Shown here: one piece after another, positions 4,207 through 45,933 of the stretch
Position numbering within the stretch: the stretch's first letter is position 1
How the letters are laid out: each line of letters begins with the position of its first letter
NCBI GenBank assembly: GCA_943368745.1
Contig: CALRLP020000004.1
Coordinates: 17,617-81,616 of the forward strand
Direction: 5' to 3'
DNA: 64,000 nucleotides
From: Maricaulis salignorans
Lineage (GTDB): Bacteria > Pseudomonadota > Alphaproteobacteria > Sphingomonadales > Sphingomonadaceae
Program-made: the position numbers and the translations under genes
The notes under the pieces: generated by a model
Databases searched by the model: none
What the model was told of the DNA's origin: nothing
The model's input: only the letters and a program-made list of their open reading frames with translations

Positions 4207-5658
4207 TCAATTTAACTTGGACGGTAATAGCATTTGGAACGACGGCGCTGGCGTTTCGGAGGGGCGTCGTCCGTATTGCTTGGACGGAGACAAAGTCGCG
4301 CCAAACAATATTTGACTCCATTCCGAAGGGCTGCGCGACGCCCGGTTATCGCTATTGGGTGCACGCGCTGTAAGCACGACAAGCACCTCACGACGGTCGA
4401 CTGACAGGCCCCGCCGCGAAAGCCCTGGTATCGCAACCGGCGTTATGGAGCGGCTGTTCGTGCTCCGCCGATTCAGCGAGTCTCCCGATCCGACGACGAT
4501 CGCCTTGCCATAAGGCAGTTTGACCGACACCTCGACATGGGTTTTGTCCGTTTCGAGGATGCTTGCGCCACGCCCGACATTCACCGATGACTGCCCTGTA
4601 ATGTTCGACATTTCCAAAACGACGTCGAGATCGACGTCGTTTGAACCAATTCGCTGCGGAGTTACTTCAAGCGTTACACCCACATCGCGTTCGATTGGCT
4701 GGCTGCGATCCGAAAGGGGAACGATTAGCACAGATCCGCCTTCGGCAAATTTGGACTTCTTGCCTTCGCGGGCAAGAACAACCGGGCTTGCTTCAAGCGT
4801 GACGTGCGATTGGCTGTTCGACGCCAGATTAAGCGAATAATTGATGGCTGGTGCGGTGATCGTGAGGTTGCCTGTCTTCGTGTCTGTGCTGTCCGCTGCC
4901 AAATCGTAACTGTAATTGAGTAACGTTCCGCCGAACTGCACAGAGAGCCCATCGAGCAGGTTCAGTCCGCGATTTCCCGATGAGCCGCGGGTTTCTCGGA
5001 TCAGATAAGCTTCGATGACTACGCCTGGTCCGTCGTCACCCGCAGCGCTGGCTGCTGCGTTGCCTGTGCCGGAGTCAGCCGGCGGAATCATGGGTGCGCT
5101 GGAGGATGAGGGAGACGTTGACGCAGGGCGCCAGCCGGTACCTGCAAACGCAGCGTCCAAAAAGTTTAATCCAACCATATCCAAGTCACCGGTTCGGTCT
5201 GCGCGCTCCAAAGCAGCCCGGGCGAATTCCGGTTCCCCCGCACGATATGCCAGCAATGCCATGGGCACAGCCATTGGCCCAGCTTCGCCGCGTCGTTCAA
5301 TCGCTTGCGCCATCTGGTTCATGGCCTCGCGAACATTGCCAAGCTGGTATGACGTTAATGCGGCCCCGGCGAGCGGCTCCCAAAGATCCGGCGCCAATCG
5401 GGCAGCGGTTTGAAAACCGCTTAACGCCATTTCAAGGTCGCCCCGCGTGACCGATGGTCCGTTTAGGAAATTCATAGCCGTGGCGTAATGCGCGGCAGCC
5501 GAAAGTGGGCTGTTGCGGACTGACGCGAAGCTGTCCGCTTCCGCTGTACGGCCAACATTCTTCATCGCGCCCTGCATATGGACAGGTGCACAGCCTGAAC
5601 TGGCCAGTGCCACTAAAACCACAAGGCCCAAGGGCCGCTGTAAGAAACGCAATGGCAT
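4207..5658 (-). CDS. Lipoprotein with TPR-like helices fused to a secretin core domain
   Basis: Lipobox-like ALASSG-C23; helical repeats ~55-170; secretin-type motifs VVIEAYLIRE, ASPVVLAREG, RDVGVTLEVTP, VKLPYGKAIVVG, IPGL...REVLVVLT. Confidence 0.75.
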   Translation of the reverse strand: MPLRFLQRPLGLVVLVALASSGCAPVHMQGAMKNVGRTAEADSFASVRNSPLSAAAHYATAMNFLNGPSVTRGDLEMALSGFQTAARLAPDLWEPLAGAALTSYQLGNVREAMNQMAQAIERRGEAGPMAVPMALLAYRAGEPEFARAALERADRTGDLDMVGLNFLDAAFAGTGWRPASTSPSSSSAPMIPPADSGTGNAAASAAGDDGPGVVIEAYLIRETRGSSGNRGLNLLDGLSVQFGGTLLNYSYDLAADSTDTKTGNLTITAPAINYSLNLASNSQSHVTLEASPVVLAREGKKSKFAEGGSVLIVPLSDRSQPIERDVGVTLEVTPQRIGSNDVDLDVVLEMSNITGQSSVNVGRGASILETDKTHVEVSVKLPYGKAIVVGSGDSLNRRSTNSRSITPVAIPGLSRRGLSVDRREVLVVLTARAPNSDNRASRSPSEWSQILFGATLSPSKQYGRRPSETPAPSFQMLLPSKLN

Positions 5659-28090: not shown

Positions 28091-28540
28091 ATGGGCAAGA
28101 AAATCCTGATTGTCGAAGACGAGTTTATCGTCGCCCTGAATTTGCGCCAGACCTTAGCGGCGCTGGGATTTGACACGCTGGGAATAGCGCCGGACGCGCG
28201 AACAGCATTTAAACTCGCAGACCAAAAACCCGATATTGCGCTCGTCGATGTCAATTTGCGGGATGGCGAAACTGGTCCGGGCATCGGGCGCAGGCTTGCG
28301 CATGAATATGGGGCCGTCGTATTATTTGTTACGGCAAATCCTGCGCGACTTGGTGATGGCATCGAAGGAACTCTTGGTTGCCTATGTAAACCTGTGGGCC
28401 ATGAGGAGGTTCAGGAGGCACTCGATTTCCTGCAGGACTTTCAAGACAATCCAGCAGCGACCCCGCCGCCAGCCCTGCGTATGTTTCGGAATGACAATGA
28501 CACTCGTGTGTCAGGCCGCGAAATGGAGCGCCACGGCTGA
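28091..28540 (+). CDS. Single-domain response regulator
   Basis: ILIVEDE, ALVDVNL, FVTAN, LCKP receiver motifs. Confidence 0.9.
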   Translation: MGKKILIVEDEFIVALNLRQTLAALGFDTLGIAPDARTAFKLADQKPDIALVDVNLRDGETGPGIGRRLAHEYGAVVLFVTANPARLGDGIEGTLGCLCKPVGHEEVQEALDFLQDFQDNPAATPPPALRMFRNDNDTRVSGREMERHG

Positions 28541-28542
28541 CT

Positions 28543-29994
28543 CTATAAATGCTCGGACGGAACGGTCATGATAACTTGAAGCCCCTCGCGATTCCAGAGC
28601 CGTTCAATTGTACCGCCAAGCTGGCTGGCAATGCCAATTTCAGAAAGCTGCGTTCCAAAGCCGGATCGTTCGGGAGTTAGGGGAACTTCTAGGCCGCCTG
28701 ACTCCGTCCAACGGATGACGACCTGTTCAGCCTGCATATCCGTCACAATATGCACTTCGCCCTCAGGCTTTGCCAATGCGCCATATTTCACAGCATTTGT
28801 GGCCAGTTCGTGGATGACCAAAGCGAGCGGCGTAGCGCTGCGTTCACTTACCGACACGTCCGTGCCGCTGATATGGCACCGGACCCTGCCGTCCATCTCA
28901 TAAGGCATCAAAATTTCTTGGATCAGCCCATGTAACTTAGTGAAATCGCGACCAGGATCAGAATAAGCGCTGTGTGGCCGCGCAAAGTTATGCGCTCGAC
29001 CCAGGGCGGAAATGCGGCCAGCCAGTTGCTTTGCAAACTTTGCCGACGACACATCCGCTGGTGTCGACAGCCCGATCAGTCCGGCAACAACCGCAAAGAT
29101 ATTTTTGATACGGTGGCTAAGCTCCCGGCTCATCAATTCGGTTCGTTCAGCAATCAACTTGCTCTCGTGGATATCCGTGCAAGTGCCAATCCAGCGCAAT
29201 ATTTGCCCCTTGTCGTCGCGCACGGGCAATGCGCGACCTAAGGTCCAGCGAAACTCTCCGCTATGGTGGCGCAAGCGATATTCGATTTCATAATCTTCGC
29301 CCGTCGCCACGGCGTGCCGCCATTTTGCAAACGCCTCTTCGCGATCATCAGGGTGAAACACGCCGTTCCACCCATCGCCATCGGTTGAACCATATGCCAT
29401 TCCGGTGAATTCATACCACCGGGCATTAAAATAATCATGCGCCCCATCTGGCTTGGTTGACCACACCATCTGCGGCAGCGCATCGGTCAACGCTTTGAAC
29501 TTGGCTTCACTCACCAGCAGAGCTTCTTTCGCGCTCAGCCCGCTCTCATATTCCGAATTGGTGCCAATCCACCGCACGATTTCATTATTTTTGCCCAGCA
29601 CAGGCACAATACGCGTCAGAAACTGGCGAAAAATGCCGTCCGCACCGCGCAATGGAAATACCATTTCAAACGCGTTGCCGTTTGCAATCGACCGTTTCCA
29701 TTTTTCAAGGACCTTGGACAACTCGAGCGGATCGTGAACACTTTGCCAGCCCCAACCTTCCATCGACTTGGGCGTCGACCCGCAATAGTCATGCCAGCGT
29801 CTGTTGTACCAATATATATAGCCGTCGCCCCGCGCTATCCAGCACAGCGCAGGTATATTATCCGCCAGTAAACGAAAATCTGCGTCGCTTGGCTGAACCG
29901 GTTTATCCGATGACAGTAATTCAGGCGCGACACTGGGTGTCCGCCAATAATCGTGCTCGACATCGTTCGCTAATTTTGGCCATTTATAGATCAT
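28543..29994 (-). CDS. Cytoplasmic PAS-PAS HWE histidine kinase
   Basis: Two PAS-type domains; ELSHRIKN H-box; HELATNAVKYGAL; RWTESGG. Confidence 0.92.
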   Translation of the reverse strand: MIYKWPKLANDVEHDYWRTPSVAPELLSSDKPVQPSDADFRLLADNIPALCWIARGDGYIYWYNRRWHDYCGSTPKSMEGWGWQSVHDPLELSKVLEKWKRSIANGNAFEMVFPLRGADGIFRQFLTRIVPVLGKNNEIVRWIGTNSEYESGLSAKEALLVSEAKFKALTDALPQMVWSTKPDGAHDYFNARWYEFTGMAYGSTDGDGWNGVFHPDDREEAFAKWRHAVATGEDYEIEYRLRHHSGEFRWTLGRALPVRDDKGQILRWIGTCTDIHESKLIAERTELMSRELSHRIKNIFAVVAGLIGLSTPADVSSAKFAKQLAGRISALGRAHNFARPHSAYSDPGRDFTKLHGLIQEILMPYEMDGRVRCHISGTDVSVSERSATPLALVIHELATNAVKYGALAKPEGEVHIVTDMQAEQVVIRWTESGGLEVPLTPERSGFGTQLSEIGIASQLGGTIERLWNREGLQVIMTVPSEHL

Positions 29995-30133: not shown

Positions 30134-30158
30134 GAAACAAACCACAGCGCCATGCGTT
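30134..30158 (+). promoter_or_regulatory. EcfG-type promoter motif
   Basis: GAAAC-N16-CGTT 33 nt before ATG 30192. Confidence 0.6.
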
Positions 30159-30191: not shown

Positions 30192-30647
30192 ATGGAAGCC
30201 CGTCATTACGACATCGAAACAGTGAACCAACTCATCAAAACAACGATCGACAGCGTAGATGGATATCGGTCCGCTGCCGAAGCCGCGGACAGCCAGCAAT
30301 TTCAGTCAATTTTTTTCGAACGCGCGAATGAACGGCAGCAGGTTGCCGATCAATTACGCAATCATGTGCGTTCGCTTGGTGGCGATCCCGAAGATGATGG
30401 CTCGCTCGCCGCGGGCGCACACCGCATGTTTATGAGCTTACGCGACGCGATAACGGGTTCAGACGACCAAGCAGTGGTCGCAGAAGTCGAACGTGGCGAA
30501 GATTATATTAAAGCCAAATTCGAAGCAGCTTTGGAAGATGGGAACCTTGGAATGGAAACGCGCACGATGATTAGCCAGTGCTATGATTCGGTAAAATCGG
30601 GCCATGACCAAATGCGTGATTTGAAGAACGGCATGCGCGCGGGCTAA
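30192..30647 (+). CDS. PA2169/DUF2383 family four-helix-bundle stress protein
   Basis: LIKTTIDSVDGY, HRMFMSL, EVERGED motifs; RBS AGGAG. Confidence 0.88.
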   Translation: MEARHYDIETVNQLIKTTIDSVDGYRSAAEAADSQQFQSIFFERANERQQVADQLRNHVRSLGGDPEDDGSLAAGAHRMFMSLRDAITGSDDQAVVAEVERGEDYIKAKFEAALEDGNLGMETRTMISQCYDSVKSGHDQMRDLKNGMRAG

Positions 30648-30681
30648 GGCAACGTCGGCGGGGATTCCCGTCGGACTGTTG

Positions 30682-30728
30682 AAAACGAAACCTCGTCAGT
30701 TGATCGCTCTGGCAGGGTTTTGTTTTTT
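30682..30728 (+). terminator. Intrinsic terminator after the PA2169-family gene
   Basis: Imperfect stem AAAACGAAACCTCGTCAG/CTGGCAGGGTTTTGTTTT ending in a T-run. Confidence 0.55.
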
Positions 30729-30745
30729 GTCCCGTCTGCACAACG

Positions 30746-30862
30746 AAAAACACCCCGGCACGCGGCCGAGGTGTTCAAGGTGCTGGTCTACGGGGGGGGG
30801 AGGGCGACCAGCAGGGTAAACTATATTTCGCGAACCTAAGCGCGCAAATATATCGTTTAGAT
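30746..30862 (-). ncRNA. Candidate EcfG-dependent sRNA (~117 nt) with C-rich loop, GsrN-like architecture
   Basis: Consensus EcfG promoter upstream; 5' hairpin (30818-30858); 8-bp stem UGCUGGUC/GACCAGCA with loop GCCCUCCCCCCCCCGUA; intrinsic terminator 30746-30775; 5' end estimated. Confidence 0.7.
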
Positions 30863-30867
30863 GGGTA

Positions 30868-30892
30868 AACGTCGGTCTACGCACTTTGTTCC
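30868..30892 (-). promoter_or_regulatory. Consensus EcfG promoter
   Basis: GGAAC-N16-CGTT, starting 7 nt after the phyR stop. Confidence 0.8.
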
Positions 30893-30899
30893 CAAAAAA

Positions 30900-31682
30900 T
30901 TATGCAACTTCATAATTAATATCGATTTCGCGATGCATCAGCAGTGCTTGGCCAATGGTTGCGATGACCGTTTCGGGTTCAAATGGCTTAGTAATCAAAT
31001 ATGTGGGTTCAGGACGCTCGCCCGTTAAAAGCCTTTCCGGGAACGCCGTAATGAAAATCACCGGCACAGTTTGTTCCGCCAAAATATCCTTTACCGCGTC
31101 GATACCGCTCGAACCGTCGGCGAGGCTGATGTCAGCCAAGACCAGTTCAGGCCGTTCATCGCGTGCCTTTGCAACCGCTTCTGCACGTGTTCGTACAATT
31201 GCGATCGCTTCATGCCCCAGGTTTTCGACGATCTGTTTGATATGCAATGCAATGATCGATTCATCTTCAATGATGAGCACGCGCGCAGCAAGCGCGTCTT
31301 CGATGGCGCTACGCGCGGCAACAACATGGCTGCGTACGTCGGCTGCCGAAATGCCCAATATCTTGGCAACTTCATCGGCCTTAAATCCCTCGACCGTAGA
31401 CAAAAGCAGGCTTTGACGGCGCTTAACTGGAAATTCAGCGATGACACCGCTGCGGCCCCGCGATTCGAGGGGCGCGATCATGTCGCTGTTCCAGATGCGG
31501 TGAAATGTTCTGAACAACTCCGTCTTTACCGGTACTGCGTCATCCCATTCTTCGGGTGCTTCGAGCAACGCTTCGAGCGTTTCCCGGACTGCTGCATCTC
31601 CCAATGTCTGTGATCCCGTCAGGGCACGTGCGTAACGTCGTAGGTATGGCAATTGCGATGCCAGCTGCTGCCTAAATGACAT
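30900..31682 (-). CDS. phyR: Anti-anti-sigma factor / response regulator PhyR
   Basis: N-terminal sigma-like domain (LPYLRRYARALTGSQ) plus C-terminal receiver (IIEDE, LADISLADGSSG, FITAFPERLLTGERPEP, ITKPF). Confidence 0.96.
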   Translation of the reverse strand: MSFRQQLASQLPYLRRYARALTGSQTLGDAAVRETLEALLEAPEEWDDAVPVKTELFRTFHRIWNSDMIAPLESRGRSGVIAEFPVKRRQSLLLSTVEGFKADEVAKILGISAADVRSHVVAARSAIEDALAARVLIIEDESIIALHIKQIVENLGHEAIAIVRTRAEAVAKARDERPELVLADISLADGSSGIDAVKDILAEQTVPVIFITAFPERLLTGERPEPTYLITKPFEPETVIATIGQALLMHREIDINYEVA

Positions 31683-31746: not shown

Positions 31747-31894
31747 ATTATCGCGCGTCGCGACTTAACAGCATATGAAAATGCATCAGTTTCAGCCAAA
31801 TACATGGTTTTAAACCATGGGAATTCCTGCAGGCTATGGTCACCCGAAAGCAGTCAGATTTCCCGATGCAACAAGCACCTGGGAGGGGCAATCA

Positions 31895-32083
31895 GTGAGA
31901 CGCAATAAGGGCAAGCAACCGCTTAACGCGATTGGTGATGATATGGATTCTGAATTTGACCCTTTAACTGCCGCACTGCGTCAAATGCACGACAGTGTTG
32001 CCAATGAACCCATACCTGACGACTTTTTGAACCTGTTGGACATGATTGACGCAAAGATGTCGGCGTCGAAGAAGTTCCAGTGA
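31895..32083 (+). CDS. nepR: Anti-sigma factor NepR
   Basis: LRQMHDSVANEPIPDDFLNLL motif; GTG start after RBS GGAGGG; overlaps ecfG start. Confidence 0.88.
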   Translation: MRRNKGKQPLNAIGDDMDSEFDPLTAALRQMHDSVANEPIPDDFLNLLDMIDAKMSASKKFQ

Positions 32084-32700
32084 GTAGCTCCGCCACGGAG
32101 CCAGTTCCGAAGTCCGAAAAGTCGGATGCTTCGGCTGACTTTCGCGCACAAATGGTCGCGATCATCCCGTCGCTGCGTGCGTTCGCGCGTGGCCTGTGCG
32201 GAAATCGCGAGCTTGCAGACGATCTTGCCCAAGAGGCGATGATGCGGGCTTGGGCTGCCCATGAAAGCTTCACCCCAGGCACCAACTTTCGTGCCTGGAT
32301 GTTCATGATATTGCGCAACCAGTTTTACACGACGATGCGCAAAAATTCGCGCATGACAAGCTGGGATCCGGAGGCAGCAGAGCGACTGCTGGTCGAGGCC
32401 CCGCCGCAACAGCACCACATCCATATGAGCGATGTTGAAAAGGCGCTGCAAAAGTTGCCGGCTGAACAGCGCGAAATATTGATGATCGTCGGTGCAGGTG
32501 GCGCCAGTTATGAAGAGGCAGCGGAAATTACGGGCTGTGCCATCGGAACAGTCAAAAGCCGGCTTGCACGTGGCCGCGTTGCCTTGGCGACGCTTATCAA
32601 CGGTACCGATGCGCCAGCGCGCGTGAAAGCGCCGCCGCGCAAGCGTGCGAACGAACCTGTAAACGACACGCCACATCCAAAGCCAAGCACATTACCATAA
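32080..32700 (+). CDS. ecfG: General stress ECF sigma factor EcfG (SigT/RpoE2 type)
   Basis: IPSLRAFARGLCG, ADDLAQE, PGTNFRAWMFMILRNQF, GTVKSRLARGR; divergent from phyR, fused to nepR operon. Confidence 0.93.
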   Translation: MSSSATEPVPKSEKSDASADFRAQMVAIIPSLRAFARGLCGNRELADDLAQEAMMRAWAAHESFTPGTNFRAWMFMILRNQFYTTMRKNSRMTSWDPEAAERLLVEAPPQQHHIHMSDVEKALQKLPAEQREILMIVGAGGASYEEAAEITGCAIGTVKSRLARGRVALATLINGTDAPARVKAPPRKRANEPVNDTPHPKPSTLP

Positions 32701-32707
32701 ATCGCAT

Positions 32708-34429
32708 TTGCTGAGAGCTGCATTGGCATTTTTCCGACCTTTGACATTGCGGCACGGTTTGATCCTGATCGTGTTCGCAGCCTTGCTACCGGTCGTCGTC
32801 GCGAGTGTTATTCAGGGCTTTTCTGCGCTCAACAGCACGCGCGATATGGCGATGGGACGCCTCAGTGCCCACGCGAGCACGATTGCGGAGCGGCAACGTG
32901 ATCCCTTCATTATTGCGCAACATCTCTTACTGGCGTTGGCTACCAACGCCGACGTTACAAAAATGTCGGGTGGATGTGACGCTGCCCTGCGCGCTTCGCT
33001 TAGCAACTATCGGCCGGTGACCAACCTCGCGCGAACGAGTGCCGATGGTGTCTTACGGTGTTCTGTGCTTCCACATGAAAGGGAAATCAATTTAGCCAAT
33101 GAGGGTTGGTGGCAGCGGGGCGTTCGTGCCAAAGGCATGACCATCACTAAAGCGCCCATTTATGCGCCCCTTGCCCAGCGTAACGTTCTATTCCTCATTC
33201 TTCCGCTACGGACAGCAGACGGGCAGCAAGACGGAACGCTGACGGCGGCGATTGACATAGACTATTTACGTAATGCCCTGTTGAAGGCGCAGGAAGGTAA
33301 GGCAGGCGCAGTCGCCATCGTTACCCGCGATGCGGTTATCGTTGCGCAAGGCAAGCAACGGCTGACCTTCGCGCCCAACCTTGATGCGCGTCAGGATGAG
33401 GCACAGTTAGCGAAAGGGCGCGACGGGACAGAGTGGCTGTACGCCTTCCACAAGCTTTATAGCTCCGAACTCTTTGTCGTGTACGCTGAACCCCGCGTAC
33501 GGGTGATGGCGACCGCTGTCTCGCAAGTGCGTGCAAGCATATTCCTGCCGCTGGTGTCGATCTTGCTTGCTTCACTGGCAATCTGGATCGGGACCAATCG
33601 CCTTGCACTGGTATGGCTTCGCGCATTGCGAAAAGTTGCTGGACGCTTTGCCGGCGGAGACTTCACCGGTGACCGCGCCCGATTCCAAAACGCACCAGAG
33701 GAAATTGCCGCACTCAGCGCCGATTTGCATAGCATGGCAGATGTCATTCACCGGCGAAATAACGATCTGACACATGCCCTTGAGGCCAAAAGCTTGCTCA
33801 CGCGTGAGGTGCACCATCGGGTCAAAAACAACCTTCAAATCATCAACAGTCTACTCACGCTGCAATCCGGACGCGTGCAGGAAGGGGCCGCTAAAGAGGT
33901 ATTGGCGCAGACACGGGCACGTATAAGCGCCTTGGCCCTGATCCACAGGCTCTTATATGAACAGGATAATGGCTACGACCGCGGCGAAGTTGCTATCGAC
34001 AATCTGATGGCGGAACTTTGCACCCAATTGCGCGGGGCAAGTCGCACCTCGCCAAAGGTGGAGTTGACGTGCCACGCCAGCGATTTTCCGGTGCCGGTCG
34101 ATTACGCCGTTCCGCTGACATTGTTTGTCGTAGAAGCCGTCACCAACGCATTCCGCCATGCATTTGCCGCCGGATCCACAGGCGCTGTGACATTGACGTT
34201 TCACTTGGACGGCGACCATGCGATTTTGGACATTTCCGACAATGGTCAGGGCTATGTGGTGAACGACAAAAGCGGCCAAATGGGAATGGAACTGATGCGG
34301 GGATTTGCCACGCAGGTCGATGGTAAGTTGGACATTGCCAGCAATGTCGGCACCGGAACACGTGTGGTTCTGACATTCCTATTGCCACATATGCCCAAAT
34401 CAAACCGCAGCGGTGCGATCACAGCATAG
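32708..34429 (+). CDS. Membrane sensor histidine kinase (HisKA_2 type, periplasmic sensor plus HAMP-like region)
   Basis: Two TM helices; EVHHRVKNNLQII; EAVTNAFRHAF; DNGQG, GTGT. Confidence 0.9.
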   Translation: MLRAALAFFRPLTLRHGLILIVFAALLPVVVASVIQGFSALNSTRDMAMGRLSAHASTIAERQRDPFIIAQHLLLALATNADVTKMSGGCDAALRASLSNYRPVTNLARTSADGVLRCSVLPHEREINLANEGWWQRGVRAKGMTITKAPIYAPLAQRNVLFLILPLRTADGQQDGTLTAAIDIDYLRNALLKAQEGKAGAVAIVTRDAVIVAQGKQRLTFAPNLDARQDEAQLAKGRDGTEWLYAFHKLYSSELFVVYAEPRVRVMATAVSQVRASIFLPLVSILLASLAIWIGTNRLALVWLRALRKVAGRFAGGDFTGDRARFQNAPEEIAALSADLHSMADVIHRRNNDLTHALEAKSLLTREVHHRVKNNLQIINSLLTLQSGRVQEGAAKEVLAQTRARISALALIHRLLYEQDNGYDRGEVAIDNLMAELCTQLRGASRTSPKVELTCHASDFPVPVDYAVPLTLFVVEAVTNAFRHAFAAGSTGAVTLTFHLDGDHAILDISDNGQGYVVNDKSGQMGMELMRGFATQVDGKLDIASNVGTGTRVVLTFLLPHMPKSNRSGAITA

Positions 34430-43429: not shown

Positions 43430-43466
43430 TTGACTAATCATCCATTTGTATTGCACATATAGTCAA
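43430..43466. promoter_or_regulatory. Candidate operator upstream of the TonB-dependent receptor
   Basis: TTGACTA-N23-TAGTCAA inverted repeat in an AT-rich promoter region. Confidence 0.3.
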
Positions 43467-43484
43467 CAGCAAAGGGAGGAAAAC

Positions 43485-45833
43485 ATGTCAAAAATCAAGT
43501 TTCAGTTAGTGGGCGCATCTGCTGTGGCTATCGCGTCGGTTGCCTTCGCAGCACCGGCTTTCGCGCAGGCCGAAAACAATGATTCCGCCAACGATCGCGA
43601 TACGATTGTTGTCACGGCGCAAAAGAAAGCGGAAAATGTCCAGGATGTCCCGATCGCAATAACTGCACTAAATGCGGCAGCACTCGAAGCGGCGCGCGTA
43701 GAGGACAGCAAAGATCTTCAGTTCAACGCACCCAATGTGACGCTGTCAGCTAACCGCAACATCACTATTCGCGGCGTCGGCTCCGCGTCATACGGCGGAA
43801 CGGGAGACACCAACATCGGCGTTCTGGTAAACGGCGTGTTCCTGCAGTCGGGTAGCAGTTTCGGCGAATTCTTTGACATGGAGCGTATCGAGGTTTTGCG
43901 CGGACCGCAGGGTACCTTGTTCGGTCGGAACACAACTGGCGGCGCCATCAACTTTGTAACGCGCCGACCGACTGACCGCTTTGAAGGGTATCTAGAGGTA
44001 CAGGGTGAAAACCCGCGTGGCATAAGAACTAATGCGGCGATTAACATCCCCTTGGCTAATGGCCTATCTCAGCGCTTCGCAGCTAATTACATCAACCGGG
44101 ATGGCTATACAAAAAACCTACTCGATGGTTCGATGGTTGATGGCCGCAACCAGTTCACCTTGCGTTCTAGTACGCGCCTTCAGCCTTCGAGCTCCACAAC
44201 GGTCGACCTTACGCTAACATATTTTAAGGAAGATTCAGATCGCCAGAACGCTGCTAAGTCGCTCTGCACACCTGATTCAGCCTTTGGCTGCTCGCCAAAT
44301 TCAGTTTCAGCAGCGTTTCCGACGACCAACTTCACAATCGACAGTATCTTTCTCGGAGGGCGAGTTCGGCCTAACACTTTTTCGGCAAACCCGACCAGCC
44401 TTCGCGAAGTTGTGATCGACGTTAAGCCGTTCCAGAAGGCAGAGGACTTCCTAGCGACCCTGGAGATTAATCAAGAGTTAGGAGGCCTTACGCTCACGGC
44501 GGTGACCGGTCTGCGTGACGGCAACAACTCAAGCGAGCGTGATTTCGATCAGGGGTATCGGCCGAATGCCTTTAACCCCGGCACGTTCGGGACCCACGTG
44601 ATCCCTGATGCCGGTAATGGCAACGGCGTGATGACCTACTTGTTGTCAGGTCGTCCGGTAACTACGACTGAATATCGCACGTCGCAGACTGGCGGCGGCA
44701 CGCAAAAGCAGTTTAGCCAAGAGCTGCGCCTTGCTTCACGTTTGGATGGGAGCTTTAATTTTATCTTGGGTGGCTTTTATCTGAACTCGCGAGGCTCCGG
44801 TTACGTCGATACCTGGACCCCAGCAAACCGATTGTCCGGCGCTGTATCAAAGTTCAGCACGCGTTTAGGGCAGGTTGAATCTTATGCCGTTTTCGGTGAA
44901 GCCTATGTCGATCTTGCAGAGAACCTCAAGCTTACCGGTGGACTGCGCTACACTCATGATAAAAAGCATATCGAAACCGCTTCTGGCCTTTTCGCATTAA
45001 GCCCCTATTTCATCGGCGACGCGAACTTTGACAAGTTAACAGGGCGCGCGGTTATAAACTGGAAGCCAACGGTTTCATTTACGCAAGATACCAACATATA
45101 TCTGTCTTTCTCGCGTGGGTTTAAATCGGGTGGGTTCAACCCGGGCAACAACACTATTCCGGTTTTCGAATCAGAAGTGATCGATGCCTATGAACTTGGC
45201 GCAAAGAATACGTTCATGGATGGCAAGGGCCGATTGAACTTGGCCTTGTTCAATTACGAATACTCCAACCTGATCGTCGGCAACCTTGTCGGAACCGCTG
45301 TGGCGAACACCAACATTCCCAAGTCGCGAGTGAGAGGTTTAGAAGCGGAGTTGGTCTATACTCCGATCGAGCCGCTGCGCCTTGAGGCCAATCTTGGTCT
45401 ACTGAACGCAACCGTCCGCAGCGATTTTCGTTCGTCTGACCCGTCTCGTGGCAAGGCACTGTTCCAGCTCCAAGGTAATCAGCTTCCGAATGCGCCGCGC
45501 CGTACGCTGAAGTTGGCTGCGGAATACACGGTTGAGGCAGGGGAGGACTGGGCCGTTCGCCCGCGCATCGATTTCTATTCGCAGTCCGGCTTTCACTCGC
45601 GCGAATTCAACGTACCGGCAGACCGCGTTGGCAGTTGGAGCCAACTCGATGCTTCGGTCCAGATTGCTAACAGCAAGAAGGATTGGAGCGTAACTGCTTT
45701 TGTCAAGAATCTGGCGAATAAGGACAGCATCACTTGGCTGGAAGTGAACTCCGAATTGGTAGGCAGTTTCCGTAGTGCTTTCCTATTGGATCCGCGGACC
45801 TTCGGTATAAGCCTTCGCGTCGGCTTCCAGTAA
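43485..45833 (+). CDS. TonB-dependent outer-membrane receptor
   Basis: Signal peptide; TonB box DTIVVTAQK; RIEVLRGPQGTLFGRNTTGGAIN plug motif; C-terminal PRTFGISLRVGF. Confidence 0.95.
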   Translation: MSKIKFQLVGASAVAIASVAFAAPAFAQAENNDSANDRDTIVVTAQKKAENVQDVPIAITALNAAALEAARVEDSKDLQFNAPNVTLSANRNITIRGVGSASYGGTGDTNIGVLVNGVFLQSGSSFGEFFDMERIEVLRGPQGTLFGRNTTGGAINFVTRRPTDRFEGYLEVQGENPRGIRTNAAINIPLANGLSQRFAANYINRDGYTKNLLDGSMVDGRNQFTLRSSTRLQPSSSTTVDLTLTYFKEDSDRQNAAKSLCTPDSAFGCSPNSVSAAFPTTNFTIDSIFLGGRVRPNTFSANPTSLREVVIDVKPFQKAEDFLATLEINQELGGLTLTAVTGLRDGNNSSERDFDQGYRPNAFNPGTFGTHVIPDAGNGNGVMTYLLSGRPVTTTEYRTSQTGGGTQKQFSQELRLASRLDGSFNFILGGFYLNSRGSGYVDTWTPANRLSGAVSKFSTRLGQVESYAVFGEAYVDLAENLKLTGGLRYTHDKKHIETASGLFALSPYFIGDANFDKLTGRAVINWKPTVSFTQDTNIYLSFSRGFKSGGFNPGNNTIPVFESEVIDAYELGAKNTFMDGKGRLNLALFNYEYSNLIVGNLVGTAVANTNIPKSRVRGLEAELVYTPIEPLRLEANLGLLNATVRSDFRSSDPSRGKALFQLQGNQLPNAPRRTLKLAAEYTVEAGEDWAVRPRIDFYSQSGFHSREFNVPADRVGSWSQLDASVQIANSKKDWSVTAFVKNLANKDSITWLEVNSELVGSFRSAFLLDPRTFGISLRVGFQ

Positions 45834-45851: not shown

Positions 45852-45899
45852 CTGGCGCCCCTCCCGCCAGGGCAGGCGAAGGTAACCCCTTCGCCTGCC
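45852..45899 (+). other. Tandem hairpins after the receptor gene (CCCCUCC-loop hairpin plus a perfect 12-bp stem)
   Basis: CTGGCG-CCCCTCC-CGCCAG then GGCAGGCGAAGG-TAACC-CCTTCGCCTGCC; no U-tract. Confidence 0.65.
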
Positions 45900-45933
45900 T
45901 CTTCGACGAAGCAGTAACGGGACCATCTCAATC

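Follow-up and report, generated by a model that had tools for sequence, protein, structure and literature searches.

The closest described counterpart of the element analyzed here is GsrN, a sigT-dependent small RNA (sRNA) of Caulobacter whose C-rich loop engages G-rich leaders, for example that of katG (Tien et al., 2018, eLife, PMC5869019). GsrN is cleaved to a stable 5' isoform and is required for survival under stress (PMC5869019). GsrN-like sRNAs have been predicted in Caulobacteraceae, Rhizobiaceae, Brucella and Bradyrhizobiaceae; their genes usually lie beside the stress-response locus, and candidates are marked by an EcfG site, proximity to that locus and intergenic transcription (PMC5869019). 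Erythrobacter litoralis, the one member of the Sphingomonadales examined, was reported to have 'no apparent gsrN-like gene' (PMC5869019). Here, we describe an element on the minus strand of a 64,000-nucleotide (nt) stretch of DNA from a member of that order (contig CALRLP020000004.1, hereafter the window), located at positions 30746-30892, immediately downstream of phyR. Judged by its sequence, it is a previously unannotated candidate for an EcfG-type sRNA with a C-rich seed, noteworthy for its Sphingomonadales host and for its fusion to the 3' end of phyR. We consider it fairly likely that the element is the gene for a trans-acting regulatory sRNA of ~115 nt and forms part of the general stress response of alphaproteobacteria.

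Two further groups of known sRNAs are relevant to the comparison. The cuckoo/alpha-r14/RSs0680 (CcsR1-4) RNAs of Rhizobiales and Rhodobacterales carry CCUCCUCCC in anti-Shine-Dalgarno loops (PMC4615179, PMC3927594, PMC8034643), and a cuckoo RNA consists of two to four hairpins side by side, all of which display CCUCCUCCC in the loop (PMC4615179). These RNAs are alphaproteobacterial and stress-induced, and a C/U-rich anti-Shine-Dalgarno motif over variable stems is their sole conserved sequence. The CcsR RNAs have been reported to depend on RpoHI/HII rather than on EcfG. The other group is represented by DapZ and MicL of enterobacteria, sRNAs embedded in a 3' untranslated region (3'UTR), which have their own promoter and share a terminator with the upstream gene. 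Regarding the Sphingomonadales themselves, the stress-response papers on Sphingomonas melonis, Sphingopyxis granuli and E. litoralis that we searched make no mention of an sRNA of this kind, and the Sphingopyxis sRNA SuhB, which is under the control of a LysR-type protein, has a regulon largely separate from the stress regulon.

A first-pass annotation of the window had assigned to the element an EcfG-type promoter, a 5' hairpin, an 8-bp stem with its loop, and a terminator followed by U5. All of these parts are present, as follows.

30892-30868, minus strand: EcfG-type promoter, with the -35 GGAAC at 30892-30888, a 16-nt spacer and the -10 CGTT at 30871-30868 (read from the sequence)
30746..30862, minus strand: predicted sRNA of ~115 nt (from the fold and the conserved promoter and terminator)
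30858-30818, minus strand: 5' domain, an AU-rich imperfect hairpin (from the fold)
30813-30781, minus strand: seed hairpin (hairpin 2), with the 8-bp stem UGCUGGUC/GACCAGCA (from sequence and fold)
30805-30789, minus strand: 17-nt apical C-rich loop GCCCUCCCCCCCCCGUA, the proposed seed (from sequence and fold)
30776-30746, minus strand: intrinsic terminator, with the 12-bp GC-rich stem AACACCUCGGC/GCCGGGGUGUU, a 5-nt loop and U5 (from the sequence, with agreement of a terminator scan)

The -35 begins 8 nt past the phyR stop codon and Pfam confirms PhyR as the upstream product, which bears out the position claimed for the element directly behind this gene. The 5' end of the sRNA would be expected within 30858-30864 and its 3' end in the U-tract at ~30746-30750; a semi-conserved single-stranded motif, AAACGAUAU, precedes the 5' hairpin. 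When folded, the 117-nt RNA forms exactly the three hairpins described (minimum free energy, MFE, -44.9 kcal/mol), with z = -4.34 relative to dinucleotide shuffles, none of which folds as well in 200 attempts. The loop GCCCUCCCCCCCCCGUA contains the exact anti-Shine-Dalgarno core CCUCC together with a run of nine C and has a mean unpaired probability of 0.93, in agreement with its earlier description as C-rich and anti-Shine-Dalgarno-like.

Our comparison covers 15 copies of the element, namely that of the window, those of the 12 closest loci, and L082 and L108, both from a metagenome scan in which the pattern AGACCAGC-N5-6-AACACCCCGG matched 63 stretches; these two were the true copies and the remaining 61 were chance matches in unrelated coding DNA. 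In all 14 relatives the element occupies the same position behind phyR, and their PhyR proteins are 82-95% identical to that of the window. The carriers include a cultured isolate (L036), and GCTGGTCGCCCTCCCC behind phyR would mark further carriers among Sphingorhabdus strains. All 15 loci retain GGAAC and NGTT at a spacing of exactly 16 nt, over a spacer sequence that differs freely. A fixed -35 and -10 at fixed spacing over a drifting spacer would be the pattern expected of a working promoter, and not of a simple 3'UTR. The distance from the -10 to hairpin 2 is 53-58 nt (38 nt in L008), and the predicted RNA measures 112-118 nt in all loci except L008, where it measures 93 nt.

Downstream of the promoter, the 5' domain is 55-70% A+U in the relatives and variable in sequence. 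MFE folding gives a stem-loop there in all loci but L008, which beats shuffles (z <= -1.8) in nine of the 15 and is weak in the other five. A single structural alignment of this domain over the 15 loci was not achievable, the stem-loops not being alignable between sub-clades, and the covariation evidence given below covers hairpin 2 and the terminator, with no such claim for hairpin 1. Hairpin 2 and the terminator are nearly invariant; conservation in the alignment peaks in the hairpin-2 region, and the GCUGG/CCAGC part of its stem does not vary at all. A covariance model built from hairpin 2 and the terminator of the copies scores the 15 copies at 59-100 bits.

Covariation among the phyR 3' regions, which the first-pass annotation had put forward as a check of its proposal, is evident in the pairing alignment. 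This comprises the 15 copies and two weak sister-clade matches (L016 and L017), and standard pairs occupy 285 of its 285 cells over the 18 modelled pairs, a count to be read with the caveat that the alignment was fitted to the structure; in controls with the partners slid, only 29-48% of the cells pair. Compensatory double changes are found in six of the 18 pairs, a number that none of 500 shuffles reaches. Pair 6 of hairpin 2 changes from U-A to C-G in L030 and in the sister-clade loci L016 and L017, pair 7 covaries too, and four pairs of the terminator carry compensatory changes. The loop is likewise conserved in relatives, with the core GCCCUCCCC in 13 of 15 loci and a C-run whose length goes from 4 (L009) to 11 (L001) across the copies.

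The sequence also argues against a coding function. The only open reading frame (ORF) across the element, 30696-30884, has its GTG start codon within the promoter spacer, before the predicted transcription start, and no ATG lies within the predicted transcript. In addition, the differences in C-run length between relatives are not multiples of three, and such frame-shifting indels exclude a coding function, so that the earlier statement that no credible ORF is present holds. The notion that the element encodes a small protein draws on a different set of loci, L037-L080 (Sphingobium, Sphingomicrobium and many Sphingomonas), in which a conserved small ORF is under the control of a consensus EcfG promoter located 30-100 nt past phyR. 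This ORF, which takes the slot held by the sRNA in the Sphingorhabdus-like clade, specifies a membrane protein of ~45-60 amino acids with one hydrophobic helix, for example MAEEEQHIATEDARSGSTPHIVRYILGISLPLVIIGMLIVLWSYYG (L038 3834-4030). A tblastn search with the small membrane protein gave no credible match, either in the window or in the 14 loci that bear the sRNA, and together with the missing ATG, the ORF start within the spacer and the C-run indels this leads us to reject the small-protein reading, which is effectively refuted. That the element is a conserved, structured, non-coding RNA is near certain.

Regarding its relation to known families, Rfam 15 was scanned at the gathering score over the whole window and over 16 related loci, and at E <= 10 over 30500-31100. 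No sRNA family matched in the window or in the 16 related loci, the matches being tRNAs and terminator-level chance matches; those obtained at E <= 10 (PsrR1, His_leader and CC0196) are of terminator level and far under the cut-offs. As no Rfam family covers it, the element is unannotated, as had been supposed.

The first-pass annotation had described GsrN as a SigT-dependent sRNA that pairs with G-rich mRNA sites through a C-rich loop, which agrees with the published work (PMC5869019), and had proposed the element as its functional analogue or homologue. The first half of that proposal is the one that stands. Like GsrN, the element has an EcfG/SigT-type promoter (GGAAC-N16-CGTT, a perfect consensus here), a length of ~100-115 nt, an intrinsic terminator, a position beside phyR/nepR/ecfG and an exposed C-rich loop as its best-conserved part, and the logic proposed for it, in which pairing with G-rich sites of mRNAs extends the stress regulon to the post-transcriptional level, would be the same. 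By its predicted promoter, its proximity to the locus and its C-rich loop, the element is GsrN-like in the operational sense. The two differ, however, in architecture, since the C6 tract of GsrN occupies an internal loop within its long 5' stem, whereas the C9 tract lies here in the apical loop of the second hairpin; moreover, the element is fused to the 3' end of phyR, shares the phyR terminator and belongs to a different host order, the Sphingomonadales. When the gsrN locus sequence, taken from the supplementary gene blocks of Tien et al., was compared with our loci, a 7-nt CCCCCCG run was all that GsrN and the window RNA had in common, a nhmmer search with the new-family profile found no match in the gsrN locus, and no match with an E value under 0.25 was obtained when all loci were searched with GsrN by BLASTn. 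Homology to GsrN is therefore rejected at the sequence level and, given also the different placement of the C-tract, we regard the element as an analogue of GsrN and not as a demonstrable homologue.

With the cuckoo/alpha-r14/CcsR RNAs the element shares a C-rich hairpin loop of the anti-Shine-Dalgarno type and, with CcsR in particular, a place in the 3' part of an upstream mRNA, from which the CcsR RNAs are also produced. It departs from them in having one such hairpin, in a loop that reads CCCUCC followed by the C-run and lacks CCUCCUCCC, and in matching no Rfam model. The arrangement is also that of the DapZ/MicL type, with a promoter at the very end of the upstream gene, no terminator in between and a common 3' end. 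Unlike in that type, the host mRNA and the sRNA appear here to use the same sigma factor, so that the two routes would be co-regulated and not independent.

In this regard, neither the sequence nor the terminator scan revealed any terminator between the phyR stop and the terminator of the element. As phyR has no terminator of its own, its transcripts must end at that of the sRNA and the element is the phyR 3'UTR too; on the sequence, the terminator at 30776-30746 must serve both. The EcfG-type promoter of phyR represents a second putative EcfG-dependent route to the same RNA domain. Sequence of the type of L002 was found in ice and soil metatranscriptome assemblies, which stem from relatives. 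In one ice run, a 967-nt contig spans phyR and the element and ends ~20 nt beyond the terminator against adapter sequence, with a depth of 0 over the next 50-100 nt past the contig end; this contig supports the co-transcription of phyR and the element and termination at that site.

These data bear directly on the main rival explanation, according to which the element would be only the 3'UTR and terminator of phyR, acting in cis, for example by shielding the mRNA from 3' exonucleases or by setting its half-life, with a promoter that is non-functional or a minor internal start and with nothing that acts in trans. In its favor, phyR lacks any other terminator, and the one informative metatranscriptome contig does show phyR and the element as a single molecule that ends just past the terminator. 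It leaves unexplained, however, why GGAAC and NGTT persist at an unchanging distance of 16 nt when the spacer sequence and the entire 5' domain diverge, and why conservation is highest in an unpaired C-rich loop of 17 nt, when a stabilizing hairpin needs its stem only. Besides, 3'UTR-embedded elements of such a kind usually function as sRNAs after processing. We consider a purely cis-acting 3'UTR unlikely. As contigs carry no 5'-end information, the independent transcript is argued from the conservation of the promoter, which is strong evidence for it but not proof; transcription from an EcfG-dependent promoter of its own appears likely to us.

The interpretation of the element as a stress-response sRNA can be put into the following scheme, in which we infer the EcfG dependence, the exact 5' end, the action in trans, the seed role of the loop and the targets. 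Phosphorylated PhyR would cause EcfG to be freed from NepR, and RNA polymerase with EcfG would start at the GGAAC-N16-CGTT promoter, transcribe the three hairpins and stop at the intrinsic terminator. The same RNA domain would also be made as the 3' end of the EcfG-dependent phyR mRNA, from which it could be released by processing. The middle hairpin would present its 17-nt loop single-stranded as a seed, which would pair with G-rich parts of mRNA leaders, ribosome-binding sites of the GGAGG type among them, and alter translation or stability; an RNA chaperone could plausibly bind at the AU-rich 5' domain and at the U-tail. The stress regulon would in this way gain a post-transcriptional arm, as it does through GsrN in Caulobacter. 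That the RNA acts in trans through its C-rich loop on G-rich or Shine-Dalgarno-like sites seems to us reasonably probable.

Several observations weigh against this interpretation. With respect to the promoter, the strict GGAAC-N16/17-CGTT motif occurs once in the 64-kb window, and at least one match is also found in 65 of 100 shuffles, so that an EcfG promoter match is by itself to be expected fairly often in 64 kb and carries no weight as evidence; its significance comes from conservation. The first base of the -10 is itself variable (C in nine loci, G in three, T in two and A in one). With respect to transcription, the window sequence had no match in RNA runs; the metatranscriptome contigs of relatives show the element contiguous with phyR and, being assembled, are blind to 5' ends and to a step in abundance; and in one soil run, which may contain DNA, a contig reads through the terminator. 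With respect to the seed, the loop of L009 has only four consecutive C, and L008 combines a shorter loop with the lack of the 5' hairpin, which indicates that a long C-run is not strictly required. Finally, an RNAduplex scan of the loop against every 24-nt window of the 64 kb placed its own antisense on top, followed by scattered G-rich sites unlinked to start codons, a ranking that we regard as uninformative.

The last two points are the ones on which another explanation draws, namely that the element binds or titrates a protein, be it a poly(C)-binding or cold-shock-type RNA-binding protein, the 30S subunit or S1. A tolerance for loops with 4 to 11 C is no less compatible with a protein that reads base composition than with an exact duplex between seed and target, and target prediction named no mRNA target. 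To our knowledge, though, no protein-titrating RNA of this type exists in the general stress response of any bacterium, and the loop has an exact anti-Shine-Dalgarno core, CCUCC. The documented precedents of exposed C-rich loops, GsrN (PMC5869019) and the CCUCCUCCC loops of cuckoo/CcsR (PMC4615179, PMC8034643), all act by base-pairing, and we regard protein titration as very improbable.

The element sits inside a complete general stress response locus (phyR-nepR-ecfG-kinase), which comprises the following features of the window together with those that adjoin it.

30900-31682, minus strand: phyR, 260 amino acids, with the Pfam domains PhyR_sigma2, PhyR_sigma-like and Response_reg and a TAA stop at 30902-30900
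31734-31710, minus strand: near-consensus EcfG-type promoter of phyR, GGAAC-N16-CGTA (read from the sequence)
31817-32083 as listed (ATG 31817), plus strand: nepR (Pfam NepR), divergent from phyR
32080-32700, plus strand: ecfG (Pfam Sigma70_r2/r4_2), divergent from phyR
32708-34429, plus strand: HisKA_2/HWE sensor kinase gene (Pfam HisKA_2), divergent from phyR
30192-30647, plus strand: DUF2383 gene, convergent with the element (ORF and Pfam DUF2383)
30134-30158, plus strand: near-consensus EcfG promoter of the DUF2383 gene, GAAAC-N16-CGTT
~30682-30730, plus strand: terminator-like hairpin and U-tract of the DUF2383 gene, preceding the sRNA terminator (from the fold of the plus strand)
28091-28540, plus strand: single-domain response regulator gene adjoining the locus
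28543-29994, minus strand: PAS-HWE histidine kinase gene adjoining the locus

Since the DUF2383 gene has its own hairpin and U-tract, the convergent sense and antisense transcripts probably need not overlap. The response regulator (28091-28540) and the PAS-HWE kinase (28543-29994) are typical accessory regulators of the PhyR phosphorelay. The DNA runs that contain the window sequence are lake, drinking-water and groundwater metagenomes, and the genome is a metagenome-assembled genome from lake water, Sphingorhabdus-like within the Sphingomonadales. A PhyR scan of species-representative genomes gave matches in Sphingomonadales only, the closest of which (82-95% identity) are labelled Sphingorhabdus or unclassified Sphingomonadaceae. 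In one sister-clade locus (L017 2980-4041), the phyR frame runs ~95 codons beyond the usual C-terminus to form an ORF of 353 amino acids; a genuine extension, a fusion and a misassembly are all conceivable causes.

Within this locus, nepR has a G-rich Shine-Dalgarno sequence, GGGAGGGG, at 31881-31888 (plus strand), 6 nt before a GTG at 31898. This GTG is probably the real start of nepR, as predicted from the sequence, and would give a NepR of a typical 62 amino acids. GGGAGGGG offers seven G-C-rich pairs with the loop of the sRNA. A G-rich Shine-Dalgarno sequence and a non-ATG start (GTG or TTG) of nepR are found in the sRNA-bearing clade and also in many Sphingomonadales that have no phyR-adjacent sRNA, a comparison in which the choice of start codon was biased towards G-rich sites. 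As the G-rich sites are present also in clades without the sRNA, co-variation gives no support to nepR as a target.

The covariance model also detected weak matches of 23-27 bits ~1 kb behind phyR in L015, L016 and L017, and a still weaker one in L034. These and a further locus carry a hairpin and terminator at the following positions.

L015 4512-4577: sister-clade hairpin and terminator
L016 5099-5164: sister-clade hairpin and terminator
L017 4660-4725: sister-clade hairpin and terminator
L034 ~4525-4588: sister-clade hairpin and terminator
L012 ~1530-1590: sister-clade hairpin and terminator, less C-rich

The hairpin has the form CUGGC-[C-rich loop]-GCCAG and is followed by an intrinsic terminator; both stand directly after the stop of a PRC-barrel gene (Pfam PF05239). 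Its loops include GACCCUCCUCCCU, which contains CCUCCUCCC exactly (L017). No promoter is present in the sister clade between the stop codon of the PRC-barrel gene and the hairpin, which is thus plainly a 3'UTR there, a point in favor of the cis-acting reading of the element discussed above. The PRC-barrel gene has its own GGAAC-N16-AGTT promoter in L015-L017 and L034, and through this EcfG-type promoter the hairpin type acquires a second link to EcfG transcription, here as a 3'UTR, in addition to that of the stand-alone gene. In this sense, the sister-clade hairpin could be the 3'UTR-derived counterpart of the sRNA of the window. One might go further and regard the hairpin and terminator as a portable 3'-end seed module of the Sphingomonadales stress regulon, joined either to an EcfG promoter of its own behind phyR or to an EcfG-driven PRC-barrel mRNA, with the unusually G-rich nepR ribosome-binding site among its targets, a proposal that we hold to be decidedly doubtful. 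If nepR were a target, the NepR/EcfG partner switch would itself come under feedback from the RNA, which has been shown not to happen with GsrN in Caulobacter.

Other C-rich hairpins were observed besides these. In the window itself, at 45852-45910 on the plus strand, the end of a TonB-dependent receptor gene (43446-45833) is immediately followed by another C-rich-loop hairpin (CUGGCG-CCCCUCC-CGCCAG) and then by a GC-rich one; the C-rich-loop hairpin was not picked up by the covariance model. In a soil RNA-seq contig (run X27; L108 5907-5936, L002 3915-3944), the same terminator is joined to another upstream sequence (...CCCACCCCCUCUCGAUUGCCAGC...), which hints at further C-rich hairpin variants in uncultured relatives.

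EcfG-dependent sRNAs with a C-rich seed have been characterized experimentally in Caulobacter only and predicted in a few Rhizobiales, and none is reported for the Sphingomonadales in the literature that we searched; the element described here is a concrete, conserved candidate for that order. The family is absent from Rfam, where our alignment and covariance model could seed an entry. Moreover, the comparison between clades, one of which has an independent gene joined to the phyR 3' end and the other the 3'UTR of another EcfG-type gene, would offer a natural example of the interconversion of 3'UTR and stand-alone sRNAs.

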